A DNA stretch of 64,000 nt from a virus, in the IMG/VR virus record IMGVR_UViG_3300017963_000225, positions 27,635-91,634 of that record; one strand, given 5' to 3'. This document shows positions 27,257 to 44,071 of the stretch, in pieces. A program made the position numbers and the translations under genes. The notes below the pieces were generated by a model, which had not been told where the DNA came from, searched no databases, and saw nothing but the letters and a program-made list of their open reading frames with translations. Within the stretch, counting starts at the first letter, position 1, and every line of letters begins with the position of its first letter.

Positions 27257-28855
27257 TCAGGCTGGTCGATCAAGAAGAGGCTTCTTGATTTCGGTGCCGC
27301 CGACGTTGAGCCAAACCACGTTCACCCACGGACGCGGCACTTGCGGTGCCAGAACATGAGCGAACAGCTTGTTGGTATGCAGCCAACCAAGCTTGGCAAG
27401 GTCGAACTCGAAGAGGCCGGTGAGCTGGGCGAGCGCGACCGACGAGCGACCAACGGTGTACTCGTTGGTTGCCGAGGTCGGGACGCCGCCATCATCAATC
27501 GCTTGCGCGTTCGGCGAGTGGACATCAGATCCCCAAGCCCACGTCGTTCCCGGAATGTAGTCATCGCGATCGATGACGACGACCGGAGTCGTGTTGCCTG
27601 GAGCAATGCCGTTCGGGACCTCAAAAATGAAGACGGGATCGCGCAGGACCGGCTCCATAAAGGTGTCCGGCTGTGCAGGATCAGCAACGTATCCGCGATA
27701 GATGCGGAACGACTGCTCATCACCACGCGGGGTGATCGTGAACTCGATCGTCTTCCCTGCCTGCGCGTTGACGGCAGCGGACAGGTTGGAGGCGACCGAT
27801 TCGCCGACTTCATTGACGGCGGTCATGTAATAGACCATGCCGGTCAAGCGCTCGCCAGAAGAGGCGAACTTGCCGGTGCCGGCGACGTTGACGGCCGGTT
27901 GAGTGACCGAGCCGGCGCCAGCGCCGCCAAAGGTGAATGCCGACGGTGCGCCCGGAATGGCGACCGTGTTCGGACCGCCCGTCCGCACGAGAGACGACAG
28001 AGCGTTCTCACGGCGGAAATAGACGATGTTTCCGTTGACCTTCACGCCATCGACCGATTGGCCGATGATGAGGCCCTTGGTATTCGCCGCCGCAATGTTG
28101 CCCATCAGCGTGAAGCGCGCTGCGGGATCGAGGTTGGCCTCGATGTTCTCGGTCACTTCAGGAGCGCAATAGATGCGCTTCAGAACGCCGTGGCGCTTGT
28201 TGAAGGCGGTCGCCTGCGAGCGAATGCCCTTGGTGCCGTCCATCAGAAGCGGCTTGCCGCGCATGTCGATGAAAATGTCCGTGTTCGCAAATGGCACGGT
28301 GGCCAGCGGCGAGCGCGTCAATTCGTCGATGAGCTGCCAAACGCCTTTGAAGATGTTCGGGTCGGTCGAGAAGCGAGTGTCCGACTGGAAAAGCTCGACG
28401 TTGAGCTGGTACATCATGAGCAGGCGAACGACGAGATCGTTCGATGCCGCGATGTCCGGCTGTCCGAGCAGCTTCACCGTGTTTTGCAGCACGGTGAGGC
28501 CCTGGACGGCCGTCGTCTTGCCGTAGAGCTTGAGCTGGACTTGCTTCTTGGTTCCCTCGATGTTCGCCGAAGGCGGCAGCGAGTTTGGCGCGAACGCCAG
28601 CTTCGTCTTGTGGTTGCCGTAGCGATCAACCTGAGTGAACTCGTGGTTGACCTGCTGCGCTTGCTGCTTCGGAAGATCCTTGAGCAGCGTCATTTCTTGC
28701 CGGTCAGTCTCGGAATAAAGCTGGAGGTACGCTTCGTCCTCCAGGTCTTCCTTCATGAACGGCTGGATGCTGGTGCCGGTCGCCGAATCGACCGACAGTG
28801 CTTTACGCACGAGGTCGAGAATCTGCGCGTCGGCCATGTTTGAAGAATTCAACAT
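27257..28855 (-). CDS. Major capsid protein (532 aa; probably cleaved at K18/A19)
   Basis: Start reassigned to ATG 28855 (AGGAGG SD). 'RKAL...EDLE...LLKDLPK...VNHEF...YG' is SPO1/Twort-like; follows protease and scaffold. Confidence 0.92.
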   Translation of the reverse strand: MLNSSNMADAQILDLVRKALSVDSATGTSIQPFMKEDLEDEAYLQLYSETDRQEMTLLKDLPKQQAQQVNHEFTQVDRYGNHKTKLAFAPNSLPPSANIEGTKKQVQLKLYGKTTAVQGLTVLQNTVKLLGQPDIAASNDLVVRLLMMYQLNVELFQSDTRFSTDPNIFKGVWQLIDELTRSPLATVPFANTDIFIDMRGKPLLMDGTKGIRSQATAFNKRHGVLKRIYCAPEVTENIEANLDPAARFTLMGNIAAANTKGLIIGQSVDGVKVNGNIVYFRRENALSSLVRTGGPNTVAIPGAPSAFTFGGAGAGSVTQPAVNVAGTGKFASSGERLTGMVYYMTAVNEVGESVASNLSAAVNAQAGKTIEFTITPRGDEQSFRIYRGYVADPAQPDTFMEPVLRDPVFIFEVPNGIAPGNTTPVVVIDRDDYIPGTTWAWGSDVHSPNAQAIDDGGVPTSATNEYTVGRSSVALAQLTGLFEFDLAKLGWLHTNKLFAHVLAPQVPRPWVNVVWLNVGGTEIKKPLLDRPA

Positions 28856-28869
28856 CGTAACCTTCCTCC

Positions 28870-29811
28870 TTACGCCATGGCTTTCGCGAGGACCGTTGCG
28901 TCGCCAGCACGGCCACGCTTCCACTCCTCGTGAGTGATTTTTCCTTCTGCCTTCGCCTTCATGAGTGCATTGCGCTGATCGCCAGTCACAATGCGCCCGA
29001 GTGCATCAGGCTGAGCAGAAACCTGGACTTGATCTTGCGACACCGCAGCGATTGCGGGCGCCATGCCGGCAACCTTCGGCATGCCAGGAAGTTGAGAAAT
29101 CGACTTCATCAGAGAGGTGTGCTCTCCGAGCGACTTCTCAAGGCGGTTTTGCTTCTCGATGACCGCCGTCAGCCCCTTTTGCAGGGAAATCAGCAGACGA
29201 TCGCGACGAGGATCGGCCAGCTCCGCGAGCAGCTCGCCGAAGGTGGCAACGCCAGAACGAAGCTCTCTGACGGACTTGCCGAGGTATTCCACGGCATCGC
29301 CCATGCCTTCGAGGAATTCGGTGGCATCGACGCCACCTTCGTCCGCATCGTCGTCATCGACGACCTGCTCGCTTTTCTTCATCTTCTTCTTGCCCTTGGA
29401 CTTGCCACGGCTGAAGAAGGCCGGCATGCCATCATCATCATCATCGTCGTCGTCGTCATCGGCGTCATCGTCGCCCTTATTGACGATTTTCGAGGAGTCC
29501 TGATAGCCCTGTCCCGACTTCTTCGGGCTCTTGGCCGGGTCGTCCTCGGTGGCAATCACCTGGGAGCCGCTTCGTCCTTTGGCATCCAAGGTGTTGTCAC
29601 TGCGCGGAGCGCCGTTGGCCTTGAAAAGAGCGCCGAGGCCCTCTTTCACGCCATCAACGATCGACTTGCGGATCAGGTCGGGAGTGACTTGCGCTCCAGC
29701 CTGATTTGCGTCCTGGCCGCCTTCGCCGCCAGTGTCACCTGCGGACTGATCCGCCGCAACTGCGGCGTCCATGTCCCGAATGGCTTTTTCAAGCAGATCC
29801 TCGTGGTCCAT
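28870..29811 (-). CDS. Capsid scaffolding protein
   Basis: Acidic, poly-Asp, coiled-coil; about 10 hydrophobic-x-K-[ASG] sites; between protease and capsid. Confidence 0.8.
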   Translation of the reverse strand: MDHEDLLEKAIRDMDAAVAADQSAGDTGGEGGQDANQAGAQVTPDLIRKSIVDGVKEGLGALFKANGAPRSDNTLDAKGRSGSQVIATEDDPAKSPKKSGQGYQDSSKIVNKGDDDADDDDDDDDDDGMPAFFSRGKSKGKKKMKKSEQVVDDDDADEGGVDATEFLEGMGDAVEYLGKSVRELRSGVATFGELLAELADPRRDRLLISLQKGLTAVIEKQNRLEKSLGEHTSLMKSISQLPGMPKVAGMAPAIAAVSQDQVQVSAQPDALGRIVTGDQRNALMKAKAEGKITHEEWKRGRAGDATVLAKAMA

Positions 29812-29844: not shown

Positions 29845-30573
29845 TCAGCCAAACTTGGAAGCGAGGTAATTTTGTACCCGCAACCGAGCTTGGTCATGAT
29901 TGTCTCCGTACTTACTCATCGCGTGCTCGACAAGCCCGTCCTCAAGGCTTGTCGATGTCACCGAAGCGAGTGGCGAGAAGGCTTTCTCGTAAAACTCATC
30001 GCGACAAAGAACTGGCATCTGTTTCATGAGGGATTTGGCGAGAACTGACACGGTGCAATTTGGATTTACGGGCCGGAAGGTAAGAGCGATGTTGTAAACG
30101 ACGGCCTTTTGAACGTAGCGCCCGCATGGACTACGCTCCATGACCTTTCCCTCGATGGACTGACACAATCCGCGATTCGTCCCTGCTTTTCTGAGCTGGG
30201 TGTGCTGCTGAATCACCATGTCTGTCGAGTAGCCTTCCCAGATCGGGAGGCCCTTGATGATTCGGCCTTCACTAAACCACTTGCCATCCTGAAACCAAGC
30301 CTTCTTTCCCCACGGAACACCAACGGTGGCGTGTGGAATATGGTTCCAGTTGAAATCGCCGTGCTCCATAAACGGCGAGAAGTCCAACCCCTTCTGGAGT
30401 ATGACCTCTTTGTCCCGGTCTTTGTCTGGCGTCGAAGCAATACCCGTAAACGGATAGTATTTCGTGTCGCCTTGCTTTTGTTCGGACTTCAACATGAGCC
30501 CGTCGGGACAGAACGCAATGAAGGTCCCGTCACTCCTAACGTAAAGCCCATTGTCTTCGCCAACGTCGAACAT
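29845..30573 (-). CDS. Prohead protease
   Basis: 'GIASTPDKDRDKEVILQKGLDFS...FNWNH...SIEG...IALTFRPVNPN' (HK97-like protease His and Ser motifs). Confidence 0.92.
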   Translation of the reverse strand: MFDVGEDNGLYVRSDGTFIAFCPDGLMLKSEQKQGDTKYYPFTGIASTPDKDRDKEVILQKGLDFSPFMEHGDFNWNHIPHATVGVPWGKKAWFQDGKWFSEGRIIKGLPIWEGYSTDMVIQQHTQLRKAGTNRGLCQSIEGKVMERSPCGRYVQKAVVYNIALTFRPVNPNCTVSVLAKSLMKQMPVLCRDEFYEKAFSPLASVTSTSLEDGLVEHAMSKYGDNHDQARLRVQNYLASKFG

Positions 30574-30645: not shown

Positions 30646-30685
30646 TAAAAAAAGAAATGCCCCCGAATTCATAATTCGAGGGCAC
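30646..30685 (-). terminator. Intrinsic terminator ending the cargo block
   Basis: Minus strand GTGCCCTCGAATT-ATG-AATTCGGGGGCAT followed by TTCTTTTTTT. Confidence 0.85.
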
Positions 30686-30750
30686 TGGAGCAGAAAACTT
30701 ATCCGCTTTCTTTAGAGCAATTTAGCCTTACCAAACCATCGGCGGCGTTG

Positions 30751-30987
30751 TCAAGCCCCGTGATATCGCGCAAGCATCTCGAAGTTTTTTTTGATTTGCT
30801 TTAATCGACTGTTTTGAAGCCACGAGGGCTGGTTAAGCGTCCCGCCTTCAGAGAAATACTGGTTCCAACTCTCCAGAGTGATGTCGGCCACGCTCATCGG
30901 CCCCCGGTAGCCGACACTGATGGATTTGAGCAGTGAGCTTGGTGTGGGAAACTTGATCTTGAAGCGCATAGACAAGGCCCTCCTCAT
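30751..30987 (-). CDS. Small putative cargo protein
   Basis: ATGA-coupled; 'MRFKIK...LLKS'. Confidence 0.55.
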   Translation of the reverse strand: MRRALSMRFKIKFPTPSSLLKSISVGYRGPMSVADITLESWNQYFSEGGTLNQPSWLQNSRLKQIKKNFEMLARYHGA

Positions 30988-31799
30988 TCGTCGTAGTCGA
31001 TGGACGGTGGCTTTTTGTGAACGCGCATAGCATTTCGCATGTAGGACTCGACGCCAGCCATGTTGACCTCGCCATCGTTTTTAAGCGCCATGCGCCGCAC
31101 GCAATAGTCAAACCACTTGGGGTGGTCACGGAAAAACGGCCGCGTGTGAGCCATCGATAGAGCTTTCCTGAGCGGCACCGTTGCGCCCTGCTTCTGCTCC
31201 ATCATGGTGCGGAATGCCTGATTGAAGCGGTCTAGCGCCTCATGCTCCATGCCGGACGGGCCGTGCTCATAAGCCTTCTCAATGATCGCTCGGCAAAGGC
31301 CCTTAAAGCCAGTGCGCGGCACTTCATGCAACCTCTCGACATTGCCGAGGATTTTGCGACAAGCGTAAAGCAGGTGAGCGATGGGTTTTTTGGCGCGGCG
31401 AAACTGCTCGCCCACCCAAGCATCGCGATCGGTTTGCGACAGCCCCTTCGTCTCATTCCTGAGACGAGCCGCCCAAACCTCTCCAGCCTCGTGTTCCTTC
31501 TTGACCTTCTCCCACTTGCCCTTGCCGCGCTTGATATAAGTGCCGTCGGCGCGCTTTCTGACCGTGCCGACCGGCAGCGCCCTGGCCTTCTCGATCAGGT
31601 CGAGCTTCGAGTAGTAGTCAGGGTCCTCGGCAAGATGGTCCATGGCGATTTCGCGCGCCAACGCCCGATCCTTCGTGTGCTCCAGCTCGTGCTTGGTCCC
31701 TCGCGCAAGCTGGCCAGCGTCAAAGTCGCTCGGCTTACGCTTGTCGGCCTTGCCGCCTGGCAGGCGATCTTTATAGCCGGCCTTGAGTAAAAACCGCAT
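30984..31799 (-). CDS. Putative head-cargo protein (DUF5661-like domain plus PVGT module)
   Basis: MRFLLKA tag; 'GTKHELEHT...AREIAMDHLAEDPDYYSKL'; then 'IEKARALPVGTVRKRADGTYIK..GKW'. Confidence 0.75.
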   Translation of the reverse strand: MRFLLKAGYKDRLPGGKADKRKPSDFDAGQLARGTKHELEHTKDRALAREIAMDHLAEDPDYYSKLDLIEKARALPVGTVRKRADGTYIKRGKGKWEKVKKEHEAGEVWAARLRNETKGLSQTDRDAWVGEQFRRAKKPIAHLLYACRKILGNVERLHEVPRTGFKGLCRAIIEKAYEHGPSGMEHEALDRFNQAFRTMMEQKQGATVPLRKALSMAHTRPFFRDHPKWFDYCVRRMALKNDGEVNMAGVESYMRNAMRVHKKPPSIDYDE

Positions 31800-34700
31800 T
31801 CAGTCCTCCTCGTCCAGGCCGAGCGCCTTCTTGAGTTTTTTTCCGCCAACCGCTGTCTCAATAAAGACAAGCTCGTCCATTGCGCGAGTGTAGGCGACGT
31901 ACATAAGATTCTTCTCTTGCACTATCTCCCACGGCTTCTTTGCCATGCTAGACGGCATCAGGTGGTGGTTGAGGATAAACACACGCGGCGCCTCAAGCCC
32001 CTTGGCCTTATGCACCGAGGACAGGCGCAAAATGCTATCGCGTTTCTTGCCTTCGTCATCCTTGAACATCGATTCGATTTCACGCACGAGCCCGTCAACG
32101 TCCTTGGCCTGACTTTCCGCCATGAACACCGAAAGGGTTTCAAACTTGTCCTCAATCGCCGTTGTGTCGGCGTCGGGATCTTTGAGTTTGAGCTTGTTGA
32201 TTTCCCGCTTACTCCACTCGACCAGCTTACCTCCGAGGTCGTCGAGGCTCTTTGGCTTGAGCTTCTTAATGAGTGAGGTCATGCCCAAACCGATGTCACG
32301 CCCCATCACCTTGCACGGCACGCGCTCGCGCAGCAGCTTGTAGGCCATGCTGACCAGCGGCGCGTTGTTGCGGCAGACAATCATATCGGTCTGCTTGAAG
32401 TCCTCGATCTTGAACTTGGTGCCGAGGTCTTTGATCTCGCCTGGCTGAGCATCGGGACGCGGCTTGATGCCTGGAACGATTGTCTGAGCCAGCTCGATGA
32501 TTTTCTTGCCGCAGCGGTAGGAAATCGGCAGCTCGAACACCTTAGCGTTGAACTGCTTGCGGATCAGGTCGAGGCTCTCGGGGTTGGCACCACGGAAGCC
32601 GTAAATGGCCTGATGCGGGTCGCCGACCGCCACGACGCGCGTTTTGGTGTCGGTCGAACGCCGGATCGCCTCGCGCTGAATGTCGGACACGTCCTGCGCC
32701 TCGTCAACGAACAGAAAGTCGTACTTGGCCCAAGGCGTGTTGTAGATGATCGGCATATAGAACTGGTCGTCGAAGTCGATCACGTCCTTTTGCATAATGG
32801 ACTTCTCAAGCGCCAGGCGCGACAGGCGGATAGCATGCTCGACCGTCTGCGGGTAGTCGATTTCAATCGAGAAGTGCTCGATGAGATTTTCCCACTGCTC
32901 CCTGGTGTCGGGCACGAGCCCCTTGATGCCGTGTGCGGCAAGCGAGGCTGGCGCCAGGCCCATCTGCTTGGCCTTGGATACCATGCTTTTCACCGTCCCG
33001 AAGTATGTCTTGTCCTCGGGACCTTGCAGCATGTCGCGTAGGATAGCGCTGGTCTTGGTGCCCTTCTCGACCTTGACCCGGTTGTAGCCGCCCATGAAAC
33101 GCGCCCATGAGGCAAAGCCAAGCGCGTTGAGTGTCCGCACCGCCTTCTGATCGACAGCCCACTGCGGGACACGGCCGAGCAGCTCGTCGCGAGCCGAGGT
33201 GTTGAAGGCCAGGAAGATGATCGACTTGTCGCGTGGGATAACGTCGAGCGCCCGCACGATCGTGGCCGTCTTACCAGATCCGGCCTTAGCATCAATCATC
33301 GCGTTGCCGCTGCCCTTCTCGATCCAATCGAAAATCGCCTGCTGATATGGCGACGGCTTGAACGGTTTTTTTGGCTCATGTCCCGGAGCGTCTTTGGGCT
33401 CAGGATCGACCGGAACCTTGGGCTCGGGTTCTTGAGATGGCGGCGGCAAAACAACGGCGGGTTGCATGGTGGGAGCCTCCTGCTTAGGCGGCTCCTTCTT
33501 CGGAGCCGGTGGTTTTTCTGCGGGTTGTTTTACCGTGCCGGCCTCCTGTTGTCTACGCTTGGCCTTGGCCTTCAAAGCTTGCGTAACGAGGTCGTCAGGT
33601 TGTTTCTTCTTATCAAGCCTCTTGTCATCCCAAGCGACAGCTTCCTCGAACGTGACCTCGCGGCCGGCTTGTTTCATAAGCTTGGCCAGGTGACGCTTGG
33701 CCATCGCGATATTTTGCTGCTCCTCGCGCGGCGACGCCTCGCCGTCTCGTGACGTGCGCTCGGGCTCCAGCTCCAGGTGAGCGTGCCAAATTTTCTCCAT
33801 CAGCTCATCGCTGATCTCTTCCTTCTTTGACTTAGCCTTTTTTGGCTCAGCCTTCTTCTTCGGCTCGGGCTTGGCGGTGGCCTCGACGCGCTTCTTACCC
33901 TGCTCGTGCAGCAGGTCGTGGTAGCGCATCACCGTTTCATGGATCTTGCCGGCGGTCTTTTCCCAGCCGCTGTTCTTCCAGTCGTCGTCGCCGAACATTT
34001 CCGAAAAATACTCATGGTGATCGTCGGGGGAGGTCGAGTGCGGGTGAATGTCTTTCTTGTGAAGGTGATTGGCCCAATGCTTGACACCGGCTGTGAACTC
34101 TTTCTTGATCGCAGCGTAGTCCTTGCGTTTCTTGTAGCCACCGGCCTCAAGCGTCTTCTCGGCAAGGCGCGGCAGGTGCTCTTTCTGCCACTTGTGGTCG
34201 TCCACCTTGACGTAGGTGCCGTCTGCCCACTTGCGGCGGGTGCCGACCGGCGCCTTCCTGGCCTTGAAGAAAAACCGCACGAGCCCGCCTCGCGGCTCGA
34301 TAGCTGGCGGATCGACAAGCTTGATGCCGATCCGTGCGACGACAGCCTTCCTGATCTTGTCGTGCTTCAAAATGTACTCCATCAGCTCCGCGATGCGTTC
34401 TTTGTACTTCCAATCGGGAGCGTCCGCGTGTTTGGGGTCGTCCTTGGTGTAATAAAGCGCATGCGGCACGAAGTTGTCGATGTAGCTCTTGTCGATCTTG
34501 CCAGCGGCAATCAACTCCTCGGCCTTCACCAAGCCATACACCTCAAAGGCTCGCGCAAATACCTCGGTCGGCTTGTTCAAGTAAGCACTGAACGACTGTC
34601 CCATCATTTTGCCTTTGTGCGACCACTGGTAGTAGGGCGTCGAGCGCACTAGCTCCAGCATCTCTTTGTACTTGGCCTTCAGCTCAGGATCGCTGGCAAT

Positions 34701-36716
34701 GGCGGCCGAGCGCGGCGTGCTGTCAGTTCCCTCGTGCATGGCATAGTCGATGGCGTGTCCAAGCTCATGGATCATCGACTTGGAGTCGCTCGTGAAGTCG
34801 TGGATCTCCACCGACAGCTTGCCATGCCAGTAGGTGGCAGCCGCACGGGAGGCGCGCTTGCCCAGCCGGGCGTTCACCCGGAAGTGCAGCGGCCGGATGA
34901 AACGCACCCCCATGTGATCCATGATGATGTTGGTCTGCTTAATCATTTGCAGGATGCGGAAGCGCTGATCCTTGTTCGTCTTGGCCAGATCAACGCTACG
35001 GATCATGTTGGTGCGCGCCTGCACGGCGTCGTTGACCTCGGGCGGTATTTCGCCCGACAGCAGCGGGTAGTCCTTCTTGGTGCCCTCTCCCAGCTCGTAG
35101 CCGGCCTGGTGCGCGGAGTAGGCCAGCGCTTGGTGGCGCAGCGCGTACTCCTTCTTGAGCCGCAACATCGCCTTGCGGCGGCGCTCATGCTCCTGCAAGG
35201 ATGCGCCGCTTTCCGCCTGATCGCGCTCGAAGTGATCTCCGGCGCTCCTGGGCTGATCGTCGAGCCCGAAGGCGGCACGCACGTACCACTGATCCTTCTC
35301 GATGTGACGGATGACCGCCAGCATCTCGTCCACCCATTTTTTCTTGGGCATCAGGTGGGCGTTTACTTCGAGCTGGTTGTGCTTCAGCCACCACTTCTTG
35401 GCTTCCTTCGCCTCGGCCTCACTGCCGAACGAGCCGACCGTGTTTTTGCGGTCCCTGCCGATCGAAACCAAGTCGAAAATGCCAGGACGATCCTCGCCGC
35501 CGAGGCCGACGCCGCTATGGATTTCATACGTGCGCTCGCGCTCGGCCATGCCACCTCGCTTGAGGCCCTTGGCCCTCTTGTGGCCCTCGTGCTTCAAAAA
35601 CCCGTAATAGTTTTTGACGATGGTATGCACGGTGTCGGCGGTCTTCTGCCAGCCGCTCTTATGCCACTCGGGGTCGTCGAACACCTCGGCCCAATGCTCA
35701 TGGTGCTCATTTGGCTTGGTGTGCTCTGGGTGCTGGTCGTTGGCGTGCAGGTAGTCGGCCCAATCGGATGCTGCCCGCACAACTTCCTTTTGGATCTCTT
35801 TGAAATCCTCGCGCTTGGCGTGACCGTGGTCCTTGAGCGCCTTCACCGCTAGTTTCTTTACCGTCTCGCGATGCCAGTTGTGGTCATCGACCTTGACGTA
35901 AACCCCATCAGCCCAGGTGTGGCGCGTGCCGACCGGAACTTTCTTTGCTTTGAAGAGGAAGCGCACCGAGGCTTCTCCTTTCTTGAGGCTGCCTCGATGC
36001 TCCAGCTCGGCCTTGAGCGAAGCAAGCATAGCCTCGTGTGACTTAATGGCAAATTCGCTTTGCATGCCCTCGATCTTGGTGATCCGCTCCTTAATCGCCT
36101 GCTCGTCGAGGTGAGCATACTTGCGGCCGACGCCGCGCACGTCGAACAGCGTGCCGATCTCGATCTCAAAGTCTTCCTGGGCGTGCTTCTTGCCGTTGAG
36201 CGACTTGTCGTTGTATTTGCGGAAGCCGCCCATGTCGAGCAGCTTGAGGTTTCCATCGCCGTCGCGGGCAAATTGCAGCTTGTCCCACGGGTAATAGCCC
36301 TCCTTGCGGAAGATGCGCCACAGCTCGTCGCGCACCGCCTCGGGCTCGCCGCGCTTGAGGTCGCTCATTTCGATCGGCTTCAGGTGCTCACGCGCCAGAA
36401 ACAGCTTCTTGCCCTTGCGCCACGTCGCGTAGTGCTTCGGAATGAGCGAGCTGCCGGCAAGATCCTTGAGCGCGTTGTGCTCCAGCATGAGGTCGTCGCG
36501 GGCACCCTTGGGCGTTTTCTTCGGAGCGTGACGCGCCTGGAAAGGCGCCTGCTTGGACACCTTGACGGCCACGTCGCCGATCGGCTCGACCTTGGCGTGA
36601 AAGACATGCCCTTGATGGCCATGGCCGATGTACTTCCATTTGCCGTTGGCGATCTTCTGCCAGTCGCCATGCACAGTGCCGATCGGCACGGCCTTAGCTT
36701 TCAACAGAAACATCAT
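31800..36716 (-). CDS. Large polyvalent protein: kinase-like, zincin/LPD1-like and UvrD-like SF1 helicase domains
   Basis: Kinase: GHGHQGHV, VAVK, LLDMG. Peptidase: HELGHAIDY, YLNKPTEVFARAFE. Helicase: AKAGSGKT, VDEAQD, VGDPHQAIYGFRGA, SVHKAKGLE, YVAYTRA. Confidence 0.88.
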   Translation of the reverse strand: MMFLLKAKAVPIGTVHGDWQKIANGKWKYIGHGHQGHVFHAKVEPIGDVAVKVSKQAPFQARHAPKKTPKGARDDLMLEHNALKDLAGSSLIPKHYATWRKGKKLFLAREHLKPIEMSDLKRGEPEAVRDELWRIFRKEGYYPWDKLQFARDGDGNLKLLDMGGFRKYNDKSLNGKKHAQEDFEIEIGTLFDVRGVGRKYAHLDEQAIKERITKIEGMQSEFAIKSHEAMLASLKAELEHRGSLKKGEASVRFLFKAKKVPVGTRHTWADGVYVKVDDHNWHRETVKKLAVKALKDHGHAKREDFKEIQKEVVRAASDWADYLHANDQHPEHTKPNEHHEHWAEVFDDPEWHKSGWQKTADTVHTIVKNYYGFLKHEGHKRAKGLKRGGMAERERTYEIHSGVGLGGEDRPGIFDLVSIGRDRKNTVGSFGSEAEAKEAKKWWLKHNQLEVNAHLMPKKKWVDEMLAVIRHIEKDQWYVRAAFGLDDQPRSAGDHFERDQAESGASLQEHERRRKAMLRLKKEYALRHQALAYSAHQAGYELGEGTKKDYPLLSGEIPPEVNDAVQARTNMIRSVDLAKTNKDQRFRILQMIKQTNIIMDHMGVRFIRPLHFRVNARLGKRASRAAATYWHGKLSVEIHDFTSDSKSMIHELGHAIDYAMHEGTDSTPRSAAIASDPELKAKYKEMLELVRSTPYYQWSHKGKMMGQSFSAYLNKPTEVFARAFEVYGLVKAEELIAAGKIDKSYIDNFVPHALYYTKDDPKHADAPDWKYKERIAELMEYILKHDKIRKAVVARIGIKLVDPPAIEPRGGLVRFFFKARKAPVGTRRKWADGTYVKVDDHKWQKEHLPRLAEKTLEAGGYKKRKDYAAIKKEFTAGVKHWANHLHKKDIHPHSTSPDDHHEYFSEMFGDDDWKNSGWEKTAGKIHETVMRYHDLLHEQGKKRVEATAKPEPKKKAEPKKAKSKKEEISDELMEKIWHAHLELEPERTSRDGEASPREEQQNIAMAKRHLAKLMKQAGREVTFEEAVAWDDKRLDKKKQPDDLVTQALKAKAKRRQQEAGTVKQPAEKPPAPKKEPPKQEAPTMQPAVVLPPPSQEPEPKVPVDPEPKDAPGHEPKKPFKPSPYQQAIFDWIEKGSGNAMIDAKAGSGKTATIVRALDVIPRDKSIIFLAFNTSARDELLGRVPQWAVDQKAVRTLNALGFASWARFMGGYNRVKVEKGTKTSAILRDMLQGPEDKTYFGTVKSMVSKAKQMGLAPASLAAHGIKGLVPDTREQWENLIEHFSIEIDYPQTVEHAIRLSRLALEKSIMQKDVIDFDDQFYMPIIYNTPWAKYDFLFVDEAQDVSDIQREAIRRSTDTKTRVVAVGDPHQAIYGFRGANPESLDLIRKQFNAKVFELPISYRCGKKIIELAQTIVPGIKPRPDAQPGEIKDLGTKFKIEDFKQTDMIVCRNNAPLVSMAYKLLRERVPCKVMGRDIGLGMTSLIKKLKPKSLDDLGGKLVEWSKREINKLKLKDPDADTTAIEDKFETLSVFMAESQAKDVDGLVREIESMFKDDEGKKRDSILRLSSVHKAKGLEAPRVFILNHHLMPSSMAKKPWEIVQEKNLMYVAYTRAMDELVFIETAVGGKKLKKALGLDEED

Positions 36717-36973
36717 GACTCTTCGCTTTCATAATCCTGGAAAACCATCCTGCTTCCCTTCAGGTGATAAATTTTCCCGTCTTTATGAATGTAAATTTTT
36801 CCGCCAACATCCAAGGTCGCCGAAGGATGATCGCCGCCAACCATCCAGCGACCGCCCTCCTTGTGCGCGGTCGTCTCCGTCGATGTCCCATCTTTCCAGT
36901 AAATTTTCGCTCGATGCTTCCGAGGCTGCTTGTCTTTTGCGCCCTTCGTCCTCGACTTGAAAAAAAACTTCAT
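36713..36973 (-). CDS. Small basic putative cargo protein
   Basis: MKFFFKS tag then 'RTKGAKDKQPRKHR'; coupled overlaps on both sides. Confidence 0.7.
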   Translation of the reverse strand: MKFFFKSRTKGAKDKQPRKHRAKIYWKDGTSTETTAHKEGGRWMVGGDHPSATLDVGGKIYIHKDGKIYHLKGSRMVFQDYESEES

Positions 36974-38010
36974 AAAGACACCTTCCTGAGTGAGTTTTTA
37001 GACATGGCTTGCTTGACCGTCTCACGCACAGCGGCCCGCACGTTGCGCGACAGCGGCACAGTCGCCAGCACGTCCGAAGGCTCGCCGGGAATCAGCACCC
37101 ACCAATCGGTCATCTGCTTGAAGCCCATAAACTCGGTCAGGTATTTGATGCCCGCACCTGTAGGCCAAAAATCAGGCATGCCGAGCACAATAGGCATCAC
37201 TTCCAAAATTTTGGTGACGTATTCGTCGAAACTGCGGGCCTGACGAAAGCGCACCTCGCGCAGGTGCGGCACGTCAAGCGGCGAGCGGTCGTAGTAGCGC
37301 GCCCCGCGCACCTGGCCGGGGCTCAAGAGCTGGTAGAAGGGCTGGCTCACGCGGCCGTGTCCGTGACGCGCCAGCGTGTAGCCATCCTGCTCGTCAACGA
37401 CGACAAGCGGCATCGCCATCAGGACCGCACGTATTACGGCGCGTCCCGTGACGCTGCTCGCGTCTACCCAAGCGGCGCCGGTGCTTACCTCTGGGCGATA
37501 GTCCGTTCCCTCCATGACACGCCGCACCCATCCGAAGGGCAGCACGCGCTCGGCCTTGGTCAGCTCGGGCAGCTTGTCACTCATCCACACCCCACACTTG
37601 CAGTTAGGATGCAGAGCGCCTTGCATCCACGGCTTTACCTGCTTCACGCGCCAACGGCGCGGGCGACCAGGAGGTCCGAATATTTTGGCGCAAGAATCGC
37701 AACAATCCGACGTACTGCGATAGACGATGCCATTCGGCCCTACAGCCGACGCCAATAGCTCGAAGCTGCTTTTACCGCGAGCATTGGTGATCTCGGTGCG
37801 AAGCACTCGCCCCCAATCGCGCTTGTCGGTTTTGGTGCCGGCCTGGCGCTTGAGCTGCTTTTCGGCGCCAAAGGGCGTCAGGTCGCGTCGAATAGCGTCC
37901 GAAACGATGCGGCGCACGCTGGCCAGCCGTTTCTTACCGATCTTGGTGATGAGGCCGCCGCCCTCCTCCTCGGCTTCAAGGGCAGCCAGCTTGGTTGCTA
38001 TGGTCGGCAT
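36970..38010 (-). CDS. MuF / SPP1 gp7-like minor head protein with C-terminal extension
   Basis: 'RDWGRVLRTE', 'CDSC', 'LHPNCKC'; lies between portal and protease; LTKA site right after the MuF domain. Confidence 0.8.
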   Translation of the reverse strand: MPTIATKLAALEAEEEGGGLITKIGKKRLASVRRIVSDAIRRDLTPFGAEKQLKRQAGTKTDKRDWGRVLRTEITNARGKSSFELLASAVGPNGIVYRSTSDCCDSCAKIFGPPGRPRRWRVKQVKPWMQGALHPNCKCGVWMSDKLPELTKAERVLPFGWVRRVMEGTDYRPEVSTGAAWVDASSVTGRAVIRAVLMAMPLVVVDEQDGYTLARHGHGRVSQPFYQLLSPGQVRGARYYDRSPLDVPHLREVRFRQARSFDEYVTKILEVMPIVLGMPDFWPTGAGIKYLTEFMGFKQMTDWWVLIPGEPSDVLATVPLSRNVRAAVRETVKQAMSKNSLRKVSL

Positions 38011-38013
38011 GAC

Positions 38014-41000
38014 TCACTCCTCATCGCCTTCGATATGATGGCGAACGCCATTATACCCGCGCTGGTTTTCCTGGAACATCGCCGCCGCTGAAAGAAGCAC
38101 CTTCTTTGTCTTGGCGCTTGCCTTCTCGCCTAGCTTTTTCTCAAGAGCCGGCCAGAAACTGTCGGCCTCCTTCGGATTTGCCACGTCGCCGTCGCCTAGG
38201 TGGTCGAGCTGGCGCGAGCCAAGGTGCTTCACCATGTCCTTCAGGTGCTCGCCCATGTGCTTTTTGATCTTGGCGTCGGACTTGATGCCGTGCGTGTTGA
38301 GGGCCGCCTCGACAGCCGACTCGTGGTCTTGGTCCTTGTGCGGAGTATGCGCCTTCCCTGAAGCCCAGCGATCCACCGTGTCGCGCATCGCCTTCTTGGT
38401 GCCATCTGTGAGCTTCTCTTTGTGCTTCTTCTCGTACTCGTTGACATACGAGCTGAAGAGAGCGTCAGTCACCTTCTTGCCCTTGCCCTTCGCTGCCTCG
38501 TGACGCGAAGCAAGCTCGACAATGTGCGGCATGATGCTTCCTTCGATGCCACGATCAAAAAGCAGGTGGTGGTCCTTCTTTCCACGCGAGCGCAAGTGAT
38601 CGCGAAAGTGCCCAAGCAGGCCGTCTTTCTCAGAGTCCTCAACCGTGCCGCTGCCGACGACACCGCCAGCATACTGCTGATAGCCGGGCTGGCCGTGCAT
38701 GGCCTGCGCCTGCTCGCCACCGATCGGCGCGGCCGTCGATCGCTTGTACTGCGGATCGCCGTCCTCGCCGGTGTACTTCTTCGCGTATGCCTTCCCTTCC
38801 TCGTGCTGGAACTGAAGGATCTTCTGCCCCAGCTCGTGGTACTTCGGAAGGATTTCAGACTTGCGCATTCCCCTGATGTTTTCGAGGTTAAGCGTGATCG
38901 CCGTCTCGGTGTCGGTGTCGTCCATGTCCGAAACGATCATCATGTTCGTGTGAAGCTTCGCCATGAGGCGCACGTACTTCGTCACGTCCATCGTGTCGTC
39001 AACAAGGCCCAAGTGAATGTTGACGGGCTTGTCTTGGCCGAAACGCCAGATTCGCGCGTAAGACTGCTCCTGCGTGCCAGGCGAGTAGTGGTGATCGTAA
39101 CGGTACATGCCGTTGGCGATTTGCAGGTTGACGCCCTCCGTGACCGACTGATCGACGGCGACGATGATCTGCGGTCCCTTGGGGTCGTTCTGGAAGTCCT
39201 CAAGCTCCTTCTTGTGCGAGGCGTCGTAGTAAATCGCCTTGCTTTTCAGGTGCTCTGGCATGTGGTCGAGAACGTGCTGGGCGCTCATGCGGCGCTGGCA
39301 AAACACAATAAACTTGCCGTTCTTGGGGTCCTTGAAGTGCTCGTCGAGCTTCGCATAGAGGTCGGTCGCCTTGGGGCTGACCTTGCCCTTCAAGGCGCGG
39401 ATCGCCTTGCGCGTGTCGGGTGACAGCTTCGACAGAAGGTCGATCGCCTCCTGCTTCTCGGCCTCAAGCTCGGCCGCCGCGTCCCCTCTTAGCTCTGCCT
39501 TGATCGCCCGCGCAGCGGCACGAGTCCCGCCGAGGGTGGATATCGCTTTCTCGACCGTCTCGGCCAGTGTGTCGGGATGGTCCGTGATGCCCATAAGCAC
39601 GTTGAATTTGCTCATGAACGCCGGCTTCGCATCGCCTTCGCTGGGAAGGAAGTCCTCGCTCTCGTCCCCGACACCGCTCTCCTCCAAAATCTGGGAGATC
39701 ACGTCGTCGAGCGCCGTCTCGTACACGCCCTGCGTCGTCGCGTCGTGCTTGACTACGGACATATGCTCGTTGCGCTGCGGCAGCTTGTCGATCCATGCCG
39801 AGCGCCGGATGCTCACAAGCCCCATGCGCTGCAAATCTTCGCGCAGCTTCTTCAGGCCGTCGCGGGACCACTTCACCGACTTCGGCCCGCGCCCCTTGCC
39901 CTTGTTGCCCTTGCCGCCGCCTACCACCGCCCCGAAAGCCGCGTTGCCTTCCAAGCCCTTCGCGGCGCCGCCCTCGTGCCCATAGGCTTCCTTGAACTGC
40001 TTTTCGGTCCAGTTGACGTAGGGGTGCAGAAACTTGAGCTGGCCGATGGCATCGAGCGGGTTGTTGGAGATGAACGTGCCAGACGCCACGCGCTTGTACT
40101 TGATGCCGCTAAGGTGCTGCACCGCCTTGAATCGTGACGTTTCCGTCGTCTTGATCCGGTGCGACTCGTCGAGGGCAACGTAGTCGAAACCCGAGGCGCT
40201 CAGGCGCTTGGCGTTGGCGTAGTCGTCGGAGCCCTTGGGCTTGTAGGAGACAAAATCGTAGCCGGCCATGAAGATGGTGTTGGGTGGAGCCTCGTCCATC
40301 GCCTGCATCATGGCTTCCAGATCGCCCTTGAAGTCATCCTTGAGCGTCTTGGCGCTCATTTTGAACACGTTGACGCGACCCTCGGTGTACTTCTCGGCCG
40401 TCAGCTTGGCGTTCTGGTCGAGCGTGTTGGTCGGCACGACGATCAGCGGCTTCTTGATCTTGCCTTTCGCCATGAGGTTGAGGGCATCGGCCGGCAGGAT
40501 GAGCCCCTTGCCGCCGCCCATGTCCACGTCCACCATGGCGTTGGTCAGGCCGTCGAGCTTGGCGAGCGTCTCGGCTTGGTGCCCGAAAAACTTGATCGAC
40601 GACGAAAGAGCTGGGATATGCGGGCAGTCCTTAGGGCCAAGGTGTGCGACCTTTCCAGCCTCGTCAAAAATCCTCTTCACGTCCTCGATGGCGTGCTCGG
40701 AGTGCTCGCCCATCAGCTTGCCGAGCGCCTGCTCGTGCGTCCCGCGCATCTCTGGATCGGACGCCACATCGTCAAAGAAATCACGCAGCACCGGGTCCTT
40801 GTGCGTGTACGCCTGGGCATACGTCGTCACGTCGCCGTGTGTGTCGTTCAGGTGCTTGGCAATCTTAGACACATGGTTTTTGTATATCCAGAAATCGGCT
40901 CCCAACTCGTTACGAAACCTTGGCGTCGGCGATTCTTTCTCCGCTTCGAGAATCTCGTCGAGGAAGGCGTCGTAGTCTTTGATGCCCTTGGAGCGCTGCC

Positions 41001-41331
41001 AAATTTCCCGCGCGTGCTCGTCGGGCCGGTAAACGCCGTTCAAAAACCGCGACTTCTCATCGTGGTTCATTTCGCCTTTGTGCTTGAACACGTCAGGCGC
41101 AACGGCCTTGCCCTTTGTCCTCAACGACTGCCATCTCTTCGGCATCACCGTCGTCGATTTGTCGTCGGAGTGAATCACCTTGCCGGCGAACGTGCCTGGG
41201 TCCTTCTTCGCCTGATCGCGCTTGTCCTGGTGCTGGTCGATGTAAACCAGGCTGCCGTTGGGAAGATGGCGGTAGTGCGCCTTGACGGCGCGCGACTTGA
41301 TGAGCGCATTAGGTCCGAAATAAAGCCTCAT
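38014..41331 (-). CDS. SNF2-family helicase/ATPase, putative head cargo
   Basis: DMGGGKG, LIVVP, LDESH, SGTFISN, EGVNLQ, QSYARIWRFGQ; N-term 'LIKSRAVKAHYR..NG..VY...H'. Confidence 0.88.
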   Translation of the reverse strand: MRLYFGPNALIKSRAVKAHYRHLPNGSLVYIDQHQDKRDQAKKDPGTFAGKVIHSDDKSTTVMPKRWQSLRTKGKAVAPDVFKHKGEMNHDEKSRFLNGVYRPDEHAREIWQRSKGIKDYDAFLDEILEAEKESPTPRFRNELGADFWIYKNHVSKIAKHLNDTHGDVTTYAQAYTHKDPVLRDFFDDVASDPEMRGTHEQALGKLMGEHSEHAIEDVKRIFDEAGKVAHLGPKDCPHIPALSSSIKFFGHQAETLAKLDGLTNAMVDVDMGGGKGLILPADALNLMAKGKIKKPLIVVPTNTLDQNAKLTAEKYTEGRVNVFKMSAKTLKDDFKGDLEAMMQAMDEAPPNTIFMAGYDFVSYKPKGSDDYANAKRLSASGFDYVALDESHRIKTTETSRFKAVQHLSGIKYKRVASGTFISNNPLDAIGQLKFLHPYVNWTEKQFKEAYGHEGGAAKGLEGNAAFGAVVGGGKGNKGKGRGPKSVKWSRDGLKKLREDLQRMGLVSIRRSAWIDKLPQRNEHMSVVKHDATTQGVYETALDDVISQILEESGVGDESEDFLPSEGDAKPAFMSKFNVLMGITDHPDTLAETVEKAISTLGGTRAAARAIKAELRGDAAAELEAEKQEAIDLLSKLSPDTRKAIRALKGKVSPKATDLYAKLDEHFKDPKNGKFIVFCQRRMSAQHVLDHMPEHLKSKAIYYDASHKKELEDFQNDPKGPQIIVAVDQSVTEGVNLQIANGMYRYDHHYSPGTQEQSYARIWRFGQDKPVNIHLGLVDDTMDVTKYVRLMAKLHTNMMIVSDMDDTDTETAITLNLENIRGMRKSEILPKYHELGQKILQFQHEEGKAYAKKYTGEDGDPQYKRSTAAPIGGEQAQAMHGQPGYQQYAGGVVGSGTVEDSEKDGLLGHFRDHLRSRGKKDHHLLFDRGIEGSIMPHIVELASRHEAAKGKGKKVTDALFSSYVNEYEKKHKEKLTDGTKKAMRDTVDRWASGKAHTPHKDQDHESAVEAALNTHGIKSDAKIKKHMGEHLKDMVKHLGSRQLDHLGDGDVANPKEADSFWPALEKKLGEKASAKTKKVLLSAAAMFQENQRGYNGVRHHIEGDEE

Positions 41332-41639
41332 TTCGGCTCCTCCCGGCTGACGTGCAGCATTCCGTCGTCTCCGACATAAAACCAGCCAAGGTCGGTGGCC
41401 TCGTCAACAAGGCTCGTGTAGTCCCACTCGGGATGCGCGGCCTTCATCTTATGCATCACCCACTCGAAGGCTTTAAGCTCGTCGCCGCTCATCGGCCTGC
41501 GCGCCTGGCGCAGCTCGAAAGGATGCAAGTGGTAGTCGGTGATGCCGCCTTGCAGCTCGTCGTTCTCGTCGATCGGCTGACGCTGGCCGCTGCCGTCGTC
41601 GTCCTGCGATTTATGAAACCAGTTTAGAATGCTCATCAC
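41328..41639 (-). CDS. Small acidic protein with WFHKS N-terminus
   Basis: 103 aa, coupled overlaps. Confidence 0.65.
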   Translation of the reverse strand: MMSILNWFHKSQDDDGSGQRQPIDENDELQGGITDYHLHPFELRQARRPMSGDELKAFEWVMHKMKAAHPEWDYTSLVDEATDLGWFYVGDDGMLHVSREEPK

Positions 41640-42016
41640 GTCACCTCGATCGCGAGCGACTCAATTTGGTATGGCCACTTCAAGATGGTGTTGTCGGCAA
41701 ATCGAACTACGAAACGACCATAAAACATTCCTTTGTCGGCCGTGTCGTTTGGATGCCACTGATAGCGCACAACGCCAGCCACAGCATCAATCACCTCGAC
41801 CTGGCCGAAGACGCCCTTTTGATCGTGCGTGCGTGAGCAGGCGTTGAACAGCTCGAAGCTCACAACGGCGTCAGTAAGATCAACACCAGCGATAGCCGTG
41901 GTTTGGCAACCATAGGACTGTGACGGGAGCTGGACAGGCACCTGTCCCGTTGGCGTCAGCGTCACCTCAAGCGAGGGCTGCGTGGCGCCCTGCGGGATCA
42001 TGAAATTGGCGATCAT
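41636..42016 (-). CDS. BppU-N-like Ig-fold protein
   Basis: 'VDLTDAVVSF...GVVRYQWHPNDT..GMFYGRFVVRF'. Confidence 0.65.
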   Translation of the reverse strand: MIANFMIPQGATQPSLEVTLTPTGQVPVQLPSQSYGCQTTAIAGVDLTDAVVSFELFNACSRTHDQKGVFGQVEVIDAVAGVVRYQWHPNDTADKGMFYGRFVVRFADNTILKWPYQIESLAIEVT

Positions 42017-42330
42017 GCCGTCTCCTCCGAGATGCGCTTCACGTCCATCGCTACTGGCCCCTCGTGGTTTTTGCCGACGTAAAACTCCACCGCGTCCCCT
42101 TCGGCAAGCGACTTGAAGCCACGTTGAACAATAAATTTGAAATGCACGAAGAGGTCTTTGCCATTCAGCGCGCGCTGAAGCTCCAGGTCGTCGGGCTTGA
42201 TATATCCGAAGCCGCGCTGCGCGTTAAACCACTGGACGCGGCCTTTAAGCCTTCTTCTTGCGTTGAAGTGAGGCAATTCTCTGGACGAACTCGTCGTCTG
42301 ACTCATCTCTGCGCTGCGGTCCCCGTGCAT
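42013..42330 (-). CDS. Cold-shock domain protein
   Basis: 'GRVQWFNAQRGFGYI', 'DLFVHF', 'GFKSLAEGDAVEF'. Start uncertain; ATG 42330 has a GAGGAAG SD inside the portal gene. Confidence 0.85.
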   Translation of the reverse strand: MHGDRSAEMSQTTSSSRELPHFNARRRLKGRVQWFNAQRGFGYIKPDDLELQRALNGKDLFVHFKFIVQRGFKSLAEGDAVEFYVGKNHEGPVAMDVKRISEETA

Positions 42331-44071
42331 TTGATTCTTCCTCGTCGTCCTGTTGCCCATCATCATCGCCGCCGCCGCCGTCGCCGCCGTCATCGTTGCC
42401 CTCATCGCCGCCTTGAGCTTGACCCTGAGCGCCTGGCTGAGCTGCTTGCGCCTGCATTTGTTGTTTCTGCATTTCCATCTGTTGCTTAGCCTGGAGCGCT
42501 TGCGCGACGATCGGATTGGAAACCACGTCGCCACCCTGCTCGGGCGGCAACGGATCAAGCCCCTGCTCCTGGCGCATCTCATTGACGGTCACAAATGTTG
42601 CCTTGGCCGTCGTGATTTGGATCGACTCCATTTCATTCTGGCCATAGTCCCACTCCATCGTCAGATCAGGATGGATGCGCTCAAGAATCGGGTCAAAAAC
42701 CGTCGTCTTGTAGTGCTGAAGACAACTTTCGAGCCCTTGCTCCTGGCTCATCTCGATTTGCGTAGCCTGAGACGCCTGATTCAGCGATCCCCGGTTGTCT
42801 CCAGCTCGCGGCGCCTCGTTAATTTCGCTTGGGTGCATGCGAAAAACAGCGCAAGCCAGGTTCGTCAATTTCTGGATGTAGACATCGAACAGCATGTCGC
42901 GATGATTTTGTCTGGTAGGAATAACACTGAGGTCATCCTTACCATTCGGCAGCGCAACGACCGGCAATCTAAACATTCCCGCGATGCCGCTCATGTTGGT
43001 CGCGAGGATGTTCGTAAAGTCGGTAATGTGTTTGTCGTTCCACTGACCGCGAATGCCGATGATTGTCTCGGCCATGTTGCCAAACTCAAAAAACCTTTGG
43101 TTGGCTGTCATGGCGAGAATTTCGGCAAGGATCGTGAAGATGGACCGCTCAAGCATCGAGCGTGGATAGCCAGCCTTCGTCACGTCCGTTGTCGGCATGG
43201 TCGGCGCGACGATAATTTCGTCGTGCCTGAATGCGGCTGTTGGCCGCCCTTGTAGAATGTAAATGTACTGCGTCTTCTCATCGACGCTGATCTGGTACTT
43301 GTCGGCAATCATACCTAGCGTTGACTTCCAAGCAGCATAGTTCGTCGCGAAGTCTTTCGGAAACTCGCGATTCACGGTGCTGATATATTTCACCGCCGCA
43401 AATGTCGGGATCACATTTGCACCATCAATCGCTCCGAACGCCCGAGGCGTGCGGTTTGGATCAAGCCCAAGCTCAATACATGGGCGATTGATTACCAGAA
43501 GATCCTCAGTAATTTTCTGAAGGAAGCCCGACATATTTGGCTCGATTTCGTCGTAAACGACGCCCTCGCTCCAATAAACCTTCCACGGCTTCATCAAAAA
43601 TTCTTCGACCTCTCGGCAGAAGACATTGAATTCTTCCGGGACCTTAAATTTAGAATCCGCATGACGTTTGTGGACAACCTTGAAGCCAACGTCGCCCTTC
43701 TTTGCGCCCTGCGAGCGCCGAGAAAAACGCTGCACTTGATGCAGGCGAGTGCTCACAATTGCACTAAGCAGCGGCGACCTCTCGCTAACTTGCCGAAGCG
43801 TGGCGAAGTTGAGCGTGCCTTTCTTCTGGCCAAGGTTGTTAGTGTAGCCCTTGGGATATCCGCCGAACATGGTGGCTGATCCAGTCATGTATTGTTCGGC
43901 TATCCGTGGCGCCTGCGGACCAAGACCAAAGGCAAGTAGCTTGATAACCTCATCAAGCGACGGCCCTTGTTGGCGAGACGGCGCCTGCTCCGTCTGCGGC
44001 ACTCCTGGAATCATTCCCGCCATGCCCATACCAATAGGTACTAACCCTTGATGATCGTCATTATCTGCCAT
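42245..44071 (-). CDS. Portal protein
   Basis: 608 aa after TerL; 'FLQKITEDLL', 'GYPRSMLE', 'RDMLF', 'CAVFRMHPSEIN', 'TVNEMR..GLDPL..GGD'. Confidence 0.92.
   Translation of the reverse strand: MADNDDHQGLVPIGMGMAGMIPGVPQTEQAPSRQQGPSLDEVIKLLAFGLGPQAPRIAEQYMTGSATMFGGYPKGYTNNLGQKKGTLNFATLRQVSERSPLLSAIVSTRLHQVQRFSRRSQGAKKGDVGFKVVHKRHADSKFKVPEEFNVFCREVEEFLMKPWKVYWSEGVVYDEIEPNMSGFLQKITEDLLVINRPCIELGLDPNRTPRAFGAIDGANVIPTFAAVKYISTVNREFPKDFATNYAAWKSTLGMIADKYQISVDEKTQYIYILQGRPTAAFRHDEIIVAPTMPTTDVTKAGYPRSMLERSIFTILAEILAMTANQRFFEFGNMAETIIGIRGQWNDKHITDFTNILATNMSGIAGMFRLPVVALPNGKDDLSVIPTRQNHRDMLFDVYIQKLTNLACAVFRMHPSEINEAPRAGDNRGSLNQASQATQIEMSQEQGLESCLQHYKTTVFDPILERIHPDLTMEWDYGQNEMESIQITTAKATFVTVNEMRQEQGLDPLPPEQGGDVVSNPIVAQALQAKQQMEMQKQQMQAQAAQPGAQGQAQGGDEGNDDGGDGGGGDDDGQQDDEEESNARGPQRRDESDDEFVQRIASLQRKKKA

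Follow-up and report, generated by a model that had tools for sequence, protein, structure and literature searches.

In phage T4, the capsid-targeting sequence (CTS) of the internal proteins IPI-III and of Alt is removed by the prohead protease gp21, and ten residues of IPIII suffice for loading (Mullaney and Black 1996, reviewed in PMC9026906); T4-related phages swap the cargo behind this sequence (PMC9026906). In phages phiKZ and SPN3US, a single prohead protease that recognises a simple motif processes many head-internal ejection proteins (PMC10052503, PMC7411985). The head of phage P1 carries the Dar proteins (DarA, DarB, DdrB), giant antirestriction proteins containing helicases, some of which are proteolytically processed (PMC9024508). 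Lastly, the polyvalent proteins described by Iyer, Burroughs, Anand, de Souza and Aravind in 2017 are multi-enzyme proteins (SNF2, zincin peptidase, kinases, ADP-ribosyltransferase (ART)) encoded beside portal or MuF genes and thought to be packaged and injected, and their processing by an embedded zincin metallopeptidase was proposed (PMC5512222). The present analysis concerns a short N-terminal leader found in a 64,000-nucleotide stretch of viral DNA, hereafter the window (positions 27,635 to 91,634 of IMG/VR record IMGVR_UViG_3300017963_000225, a complete virus of 91,634 bp with direct terminal repeats, 64 kb of which are covered). This leader ends in Lys followed by Ala or Ser (K|[AS], the bar marking the predicted cut) and starts most proteins of a cassette of seven tightly coupled open reading frames (ORFs), about 11 kb long, between the portal and protease genes (30751-41639). 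Coordinates are those of the window, and the genes, leaders and joints described below lie on its minus strand.

As in the T4 system, a short N-terminal peptide is carried by unrelated head-module proteins and ends in a site of the phage's own protease, here a predicted one; judged by these likenesses, the T4 CTS is the closest functional analogue. However, T4-type proteases cut after Glu (at L-I-E in gp21, for instance), whereas the cut predicted here falls after Lys and before Ala or Ser. The head genes point to the SPO1/phi812-type lineage, and the element also joins the modules of giant polyproteins, where a hairpin usually follows. Targeting is proven for the T4 sequence and presumed for the leader described here. 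Since the leaders end in Lys and hold no Glu motif, they do not belong to the T4 CTS family, but they may work alike. The sites of phiKZ and SPN3US resemble those of T4 gp21 and are Glu-specific. The propeptides of these jumbo phages are long, in contrast with the 6-12 residues and the repeated leader-hairpin units of the present locus. With the Dar system the locus has in common giant helicase-containing proteins, whose packaging in the head is in our case presumed; we know of no short leader shared among the Dar proteins. Likeness to polyvalent proteins was found in a protein of 1638 amino acids (aa) joining a UvrD helicase, a HELGH region and a kinase-like unit, in the position of the cassette between portal and protease, and in a MuF-like gene beside it. 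Neither a shared leader nor a Lys-ended joint nor a hairpin module came up when the text of PMC5512222 was searched. The protease family phrog_1028 and the capsid family are common to this phage and to SPO1/phi812; unlike in the SPO1-like phage CampHawk, where the protease gene directly follows the portal gene, 11 kb of leader-bearing cargo genes are inserted here. In our literature search, T4 and the phiKZ/SPN3US group were the only phages recovered with propeptide systems, and neither a published description of a Lys-ended leader nor a direct statement on N-terminal processing of the capsid proteins of SPO1, A511 or phi812 came up. The Lys-ended leader and joint element is apparently undescribed in print.

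Six of the seven cassette genes, and a gene lying apart from them at 19081-19938, start with the pattern M-x-[FL]-hydrophobic-hydrophobic-K-[AS]; the N-termini of these unrelated proteins read as claimed in a preliminary description of the locus. The leader is MMFLLK|A in the 1638-aa ORF (36699..36716, with a hairpin module behind it at 36627-36698), MRFLLK|A in a 271-aa protein (31782-31799), MKFFFK|S in an 86-aa protein (36956-36973) and VKFFLRK|S in the 285-aa protein encoded outside the cassette (19918-19938). Further forms head a 103-aa protein ((V)MSILNWFHK|S, 41610-41639), a 1105-aa SNF2 protein (MRLYFGPNALIK|S, 41296-41331) and a 78-aa ORF (MRFKIKFPTPSSLLK|S, 30925-30969, counted from Met7). 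Two more copies stand in frame inside the 1638-aa ORF, namely VRFLFK|A at residues 251-256 (35949..35966, hairpin at 35865-35948) and VRFFFK|A at residues 813-818 (34263..34280, hairpin at 34179-34262). None of the replication, lysis and tail genes of this genome has a leader. The strict motif F[FL][FL].?K[AS] matched seven times in the six-frame translation of the 91.6 kb, always on the head-gene strand, and six of these matches are gene starts with a leader or the internal copies of the 1638-aa ORF. The seventh match, SFLLRKS (around 27066, minus), is out of frame with the ORF that follows the capsid gene (26729-27178) and sits in an alternative-frame ORF of 106 aa (26812-27132); it is probably due to chance.

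Twenty-seven homologues of the protease were found at 41-65% identity, and five viral contigs readable in full, with proteases 44-65% identical, served as relatives for comparison. All five have the same cassette with the same kind of leader, including MIQILFK|A, MKFLFK|A, MMFIYK|A, MFRFLFK|S and MLILK|S, as well as MKLMLK|A, MRLVVK|A, MKFLFNLFK|A, MVRMFDWIKK|A and MARLFDWIRK|S. An ORF was counted as having a leader if, at most 16 residues from its first start codon, a pair of hydrophobic residues was followed by K[AS], directly or after one further residue. By this rule, the enrichment near portal and protease for which the preliminary description had proposed a test was recovered: 16 of 48 cassette ORFs of the six genomes have a leader, as against 10 of 325 other ORFs (Fisher test, 1e-9). 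About half of the ten hits outside the cassettes are capsid proteins, scaffolds or homologues of the 285-aa protein, and the others are unrelated small ORFs, four of them in one genome (G002). The leader is real, conserved and confined to genes of the head module. A chance origin was ruled out by its rarity in the whole genome and by the cassette enrichment. A signal peptide was ruled out as well, because the leader has only 6-12 residues and its hydrophobic stretch does not reach the length of a signal-peptide core. The Firmicute L27/Prp site was rejected as a model for mimicry: in staphylococcal phage 80alpha it is cut between Phe and Ala and contains no Lys, and the present phage encodes its own protease. 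Other cargo occurs at the same cassette position: in one of the relatives a PAPS-reductase-like protein with the leader MFRFLFK|S and a hairpin (L008:8650-9837) and, in phages of about 100 kb from the gut, a NUDIX protein (L044:6895-8637). In such gut-metagenome contigs, with proteases about 30% identical, several cassette proteins were seen by eye to carry K|[AS] followed by a module variant, I-G-E-x-R-x-W-x-G-K-x-Y-x-K-T-P-x-G-W, and the capsid proteins read DILK|A.

The K|[AS] pair at the end of the leader is shared with predicted cleavage sites of the head proteins, namely the K-A-L of the capsid protein and the sites of scaffold and protease. K18-A19-L20 does not vary among ten capsid proteins that are 22-72% identical, and the leader before it ranges from 17 to 36 residues; that of the present capsid protein has 18 residues and ends LVRK|ALSVD (28802-28855). 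The scaffold begins with MDHEDLLEK|A (29785-29811) and has a further site LIRK|S (29665-29682), and more K|S sites are kept in its orthologues: six aligned scaffolds start M..D[LI][LF]EK|A and continue with repeated, conserved K|[AS] sites. The protease carries GLMLK|S near its N-terminus (30487-30501), and [LI]K[AS] is found near residue 29 in all 26 proteases compared. In the SPO1-like phage CampHawk, the scaffold has more than ten xxK|S sites and the protease begins ..ADILK|S. HK97 gp5 is cut at K103|S104. For phi812, a 463-aa capsid chain (5lii) reads ..QEDVVKSFQTGYG, and a 439-aa chain (9row) starts SFQTGYG, straight after DVVK; read from the deposited chain, the start of 9row would be the mature N-terminus, i.e. 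a cut after V-V-K. The earlier proposal that the tag ends in the K-[AS] site of scaffold and capsid thus agreed with our data, and the same site was met at the protease N-terminus and, behind V-V-K, in phi812. The cargo leaders (F-L-L-K, F-F-F-K) are more hydrophobic than the capsid (V-R-K) and scaffold (L-E-K) sites. A co-fold of the protease with leader and hairpin scored 0.00, which counts neither for nor against binding.

Another likeness was observed at the opposite end of the protease. In relatives, its C-terminal tail carries FYK|ALS...PF.KEDLEG (columns ~235-265 of alignment A1), copying the capsid sequence just behind the cut site, RK|ALSVDS...PFMKEDLE; in the protease of the window this motif is shortened by deletion (C-terminal part, 29845-30100). 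The tail of a Silviavirus protease (L077:2605-3345) copies the N-arm of its own capsid protein (LK|SFLTGTETTPDTQVDAGALRKESL versus VK|SFQTGYGITPDTQIDAGALRREIL). Such a capsid-like tail may bring the protease itself into the prohead.

Behind most K|A sites a basic module was recognised, P-[VI]-G-T-x-R-x-W-x-D-G-x-Y-x-K-x-x-x-x-x-W (alignment A3). AlphaFold placed a beta-hairpin at residues 11-30 with a predicted local distance difference test score (pLDDT) of 77-79 and gave the leader low confidence and no secondary structure; in this model, the leader is not part of the hairpin fold. Pfam searches at lax thresholds assigned no family to the hairpin and the VKxHYR module of the SNF2 protein, nor to the modules of the 285-aa protein and of the gut-phage cassette proteins. 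A profile of leader and hairpin retrieved 120 clusters among 1.84 billion representatives. The unit lies within the first 25 residues in 85 of the 120 proteins, and 56 have two to four units, with a median spacing of 309 residues; 24 carriers exceed 1000 aa. A hydrophobic-K-[ASG] element precedes 52 of 55 N-terminal hairpin copies and 125 of 142 internal ones. The carriers include ART-PolyVal, RadC, DUF5661, SAM lyase, topoisomerase IB and an intein-containing UvrD helicase and, judged by sequence, are typical polyvalent proteins. The UvrD-type carrier (P0030) gave a Pfam Intein_splicing match.

The preliminary description had further claimed that domains tend to end in a second site. This was borne out only in part. 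It agrees with the internal copies of the wide set, 39 of 103 of which have a second K[AS] 5-14 residues before the hairpin-proximal site (15.5 +/- 3.6 at random positions), so that internal leaders are often bracketed by two sites, like separate pre-proteins. It agrees less well with loose internal sites in general, with 86 found in the six genomes as against 58.6 expected from composition-matched shuffles (about 1.5-fold, z about 3.3); many of the LKKG- or LRKA-type internal sites listed earlier may be due to chance. In the 1638-aa protein, a candidate upstream site LKK|G stands before the first internal leader (35976-35987), and a domain-end site KHDKIRK|A before the second (34344-34355); the succession of KHDKIRK|A and leader recurs in two other protein clusters.

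Comparison with relatives showed that K|[AS] joints mark the places where modules are fused, split or swapped. In the 271-aa protein (30984..31799), a leader and a DUF5661 domain (Pfam, 2e-10) come first, and the joint LIEK|A (31587-31604) connects them with a hairpin module (31506-31586) and a last, C-terminal domain. Two relatives (G001, G003) encode what follows the joint as a gene of its own, again headed by a leader, and there DUF5661 belongs to another small protein, in which it is fused to the domain known from the 78-aa ORF. That domain is preceded by KLKK|A in G001 and, internally, by YMSK|A in P0140. Unit 1 of the 1638-aa protein has a single database homologue, in which the unit is linked through IKK|S and MSK|A to domains of the DUF5661-like and 78-aa types; the start regions of units 2 and 3 (about 100-140 aa) share homology with the N-terminal part of proteins that relatives encode as separate tagged genes. 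In the MuF-like protein, a candidate joint LTK|A was located at K152 (37555-37563). In all five MuF-like orthologues a K|[AS] site follows the HPNCxC motif at a distance of no more than about 20 residues, a position whose probability by chance, from site densities, was estimated post hoc at about 1e-5; behind it, the sequence is non-homologous in two relatives, one of which has a further internal leader and hairpin there. The leader of the SNF2 protein varies in length and sequence among six orthologues and always ends in K|[ASG], 2-3 residues before VKxHYRxLPNG.

We consider it probable that the leader is a propeptide read by the SPO1/phi812-type prohead protease on head-internal cargo; loading and cutting in the head are probable because the leader ends in the predicted trimming site of the capsid protein. 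The protease would be of the serine type and would cut after Lys and before Ala or Ser. Proteins with a leader would be head-internal cargo, expressed along with the late genes of the head; they comprise a DUF5661 protein, two helicase polyproteins and small proteins of basic, acidic or His-rich composition. Since K|[AS] would also join the modules inside polyproteins, the 1638-aa product would be cut in the prohead into at least three pieces with Ala or Ser as first residue and, in most cases, the basic beta-hairpin module at their start. We infer that the carriers are present in the virion, that the leader or the hairpin takes part in loading, that cleavage then occurs, and that the products are delivered into the host with the DNA. 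A more far-reaching proposal, which we put forward as possible and hold tentatively, is that the leader serves SPO1-type heads as a portable signal for capsid targeting, docking cargo to the protease/scaffold core before it is clipped. Combined with the hairpin it would give a plug-and-play unit, with which many uncultivated phages would assemble polyproteins from enzymes of any kind (helicases, ADP-ribosyltransferases, SAM lyase, topoisomerase, kinases), to be loaded, cut apart inside the head and injected. Human-gut phages of about 100 kb may be among its users.

Several observations weigh against a propeptide function. The anchor for cleavage, phi812, is a remote homologue with a capsid protein about 25% identical, and the start of the deposited chain was taken as mature. 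The 346-aa MuF-like protein and the 126-aa protein, encoded next to tagged genes, have no leader. Lys, Ala and Ser abound in these proteins, and the excess of loose internal sites over shuffled sequences is the modest one given above. The leader is not obligatory for the hairpin module, since a few database proteins lack it and begin with the hairpin. Moreover, both internal leaders of the 1638-aa ORF begin with GTG and have AAAGGAG 8 nucleotides (nt) and GAGG 7 nt upstream, respectively, so that separate translation could replace cleavage there.

Among other explanations, the one that survives best would see in hydrophobic-K|[AS] a mere joint that separates polyprotein modules and is kept at gene starts as units move between internal and terminal positions, with loading brought about by the hairpin, by MuF/portal binding or by DNA binding. 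It accounts for the element at 125 of 142 internal copies, for the frequent fusion and fission of units among relatives and for the proteins beginning at the hairpin without a leader, and the hairpin would indeed stay on the predicted mature product. However, a leader is also present where no hairpin follows, on small proteins (86, 103 and 78 aa) and at the start of the 271-aa protein; hydrophobicity is higher in the cargo leaders than at the sites of capsid and scaffold; and about 38% of internal leaders have a second site upstream, needless for a mere separator; we regard this explanation as unlikely. Less credible still, and in our opinion quite improbable, is the absence of any proteolysis. 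Leader and hairpin would then be an ordinary N-terminal element, for instance a DNA- or protein-binding strand-hairpin, and the likeness to the capsid site a coincidence. The hairpin is conserved, folded and basic, and K[AS] dipeptides are frequent in these Lys-rich proteins, as such a view would have it. But the leader is independent of the hairpin, preceding acidic, His-rich and DUF5661 sequences as well; its length varies, whereas the position of K|[AS] relative to the next module is fixed; and the same P1/P1' pair recurs in capsid, scaffold and protease across proteases of 30-65% identity. Finally, a translation signal or a relic of gene fusion, with the start selected at the RNA level and the 1638-aa ORF giving three proteins by internal GTG initiation, fits the two GTG codons with their upstream AAAGGAG and GAGG, yet is very improbable: leader codons differ between copies (TTA CTC vs CTG TTG vs TTT TTC), so that conservation acts on the peptide rather than on the RNA, internal leaders of the wide set mostly lack a Val, Met or Leu start, and internal initiation would still yield leader-bearing products and leave the leader itself unexplained. 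An RNA-level start signal was rejected on the same synonymous codon differences and on the internal copies.

The putative propeptide heads a varied set of cassette proteins. The first gene after the leaderless 126-aa ORF encodes an acidic protein of 103 aa (41328..41639), the G001 orthologue of which starts MKFPVGWFRK|A. It is followed by the 1105-aa SNF2-helicase protein (38014..41331; Pfam SNF2-rel_dom 1e-15, Helicase_C), with its basic module VKxHYRxLPNG at 41236-41295. In the G002/L008-related orthologue of this protein, a large insertion at the DExH motif begins CFHPDTLIDMADG (alignment columns ~450-520) and looks like an intein. The 346-aa protein (36970..38010) was considered MuF-like from its HPNCKC motif; Pfam Phage_Mu_F and PHROG gave no match, and kinship is suggested only by the C-terminal HPNCxC-type motif and by gene position. 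The 86-aa basic protein (36713..36973) has no homologue in the five relatives.

The 1638-aa polyprotein (31800..36716) comprises three leader-headed units. Unit 3 is a UvrD helicase (residues 1132-1619; Pfam UvrD-helicase 1e-19, UvrD_C 5e-14; PHROG DNA helicase 6e-100), and the SNF2 and SF1 (UvrD) helicases named earlier as cargo were thus both confirmed by Pfam domains. The metallopeptidase proposed at the same time would correspond to unit 2, where the zincin motif HELGH is present (34755-34769) but matches stayed sub-threshold (Pfam ATLF 0.0037, below cutoff; PHROG peptidase family 6e-4). For the proposed kinase, unit 1 (residues 1-250) has the pattern GxGxxGxV, VxK and DxG, conserved with the one homologue found, and the ESM Atlas clusters closest to it bear the name protein kinase (score 0.95, a language-model lead); on the other hand, Pfam gave no match to this unit, and the AlphaFold model from a single homologue (pLDDT 49) was too poor for a fold search. 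Within the 271-aa protein, a mimic of the capsid N-arm (RK|ALS..PFF) was considered and dropped, as the orthologue keeps only part of it. The 78-aa ORF (30751..30987) probably starts at Met7 (30969), with AGGAGG in front.

The 285-aa His-rich protein (19081..19938) is encoded 11 kb from the cassette, after a phrog_1004 virion structural gene. Its positional homologues start MNERLLK|A (G005) and M..RSLLK|A (G001). Each of its three repeats follows a K|[AS] (LRK|S, PRK|S, LKK|A) and contains [LV]G.T[RK]SGK.[VI], an element similar to the hairpin module.

The late genes, all on the minus strand, are in the order large terminase (44075-45856), portal, 126-aa ORF, seven-ORF cassette, protease, scaffold and capsid protein. 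The 608-aa portal protein (42245..44071), the upstream border of the cassette, was assigned by PHROG portal families (E 6e-18) and is about 26% identical to portals of Bacillus Herelleviridae. The 126-aa ORF (41636..42016) directly after it is kept in all five relatives (BLASTP, 40-45% identity to positional homologues), and Pfam and PHROG gave for it only a weak BppU_N match. A strong terminator-like hairpin with a 14-bp stem and a T-run (30656-30686, minus) separates the cassette from the protease gene, and a second one follows the capsid gene (27199-27226). Cargo cassette and portal may form one transcription unit, apart from protease, scaffold and capsid protein.

The prohead serine protease (242 aa, 29845..30573) belongs to phrog_1028 (E 3e-30), which is also the Silviavirus record's own annotation of its protease; hhalign of these two proteases gave a probability of 96.8%. 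It is 37% identical to the head maturation protease of CampHawk (E 4e-27). H78 and S139, invariant in 26 homologues, are candidates for the catalytic pair, taken from conservation, and a protease profile found no match among PDB sequences. The scaffold (313 aa, 28870..29811) has an acidic tract. The major capsid protein (532 aa from its likely start, 27257..28855) belongs to phrog_752. As a single sequence it found no match in PDB; only the profile of ten capsid proteins did so, over the full length, with SPO1 gp6.1 (9vel, E 3e-87) and the phi812 capsid protein (5lii/9row, 4.9e-43). Judged by the portal identity, these profile matches and the protease identity to CampHawk, the head module is of SPO1/Twort (Herelleviridae) type. 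Among further searches for related loci, a profile search of genome contigs with the protease alignment found no prophage relatives, the single portal sequence as query found no match, and a metagenome scan added matches that were almost all duplicates.

If the code of leader and joint holds, the capsid cargo of a large group of uncultivated phages would become predictable from sequence alone, and cargo delivered at infection is the least accessible part of the counter-defence repertoire of phages. A prohead protease acting at Lys joints would be a concrete alternative to the embedded metallopeptidase proposed in 2017 for polyvalent proteins. So short a tag might also serve to bring foreign proteins into heads of the SPO1/phi812 type, a use to which the T4 CTS is put today. 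Cultured Herelleviridae share the protease and capsid families, so that the cleavage rule would be testable in existing laboratory systems.

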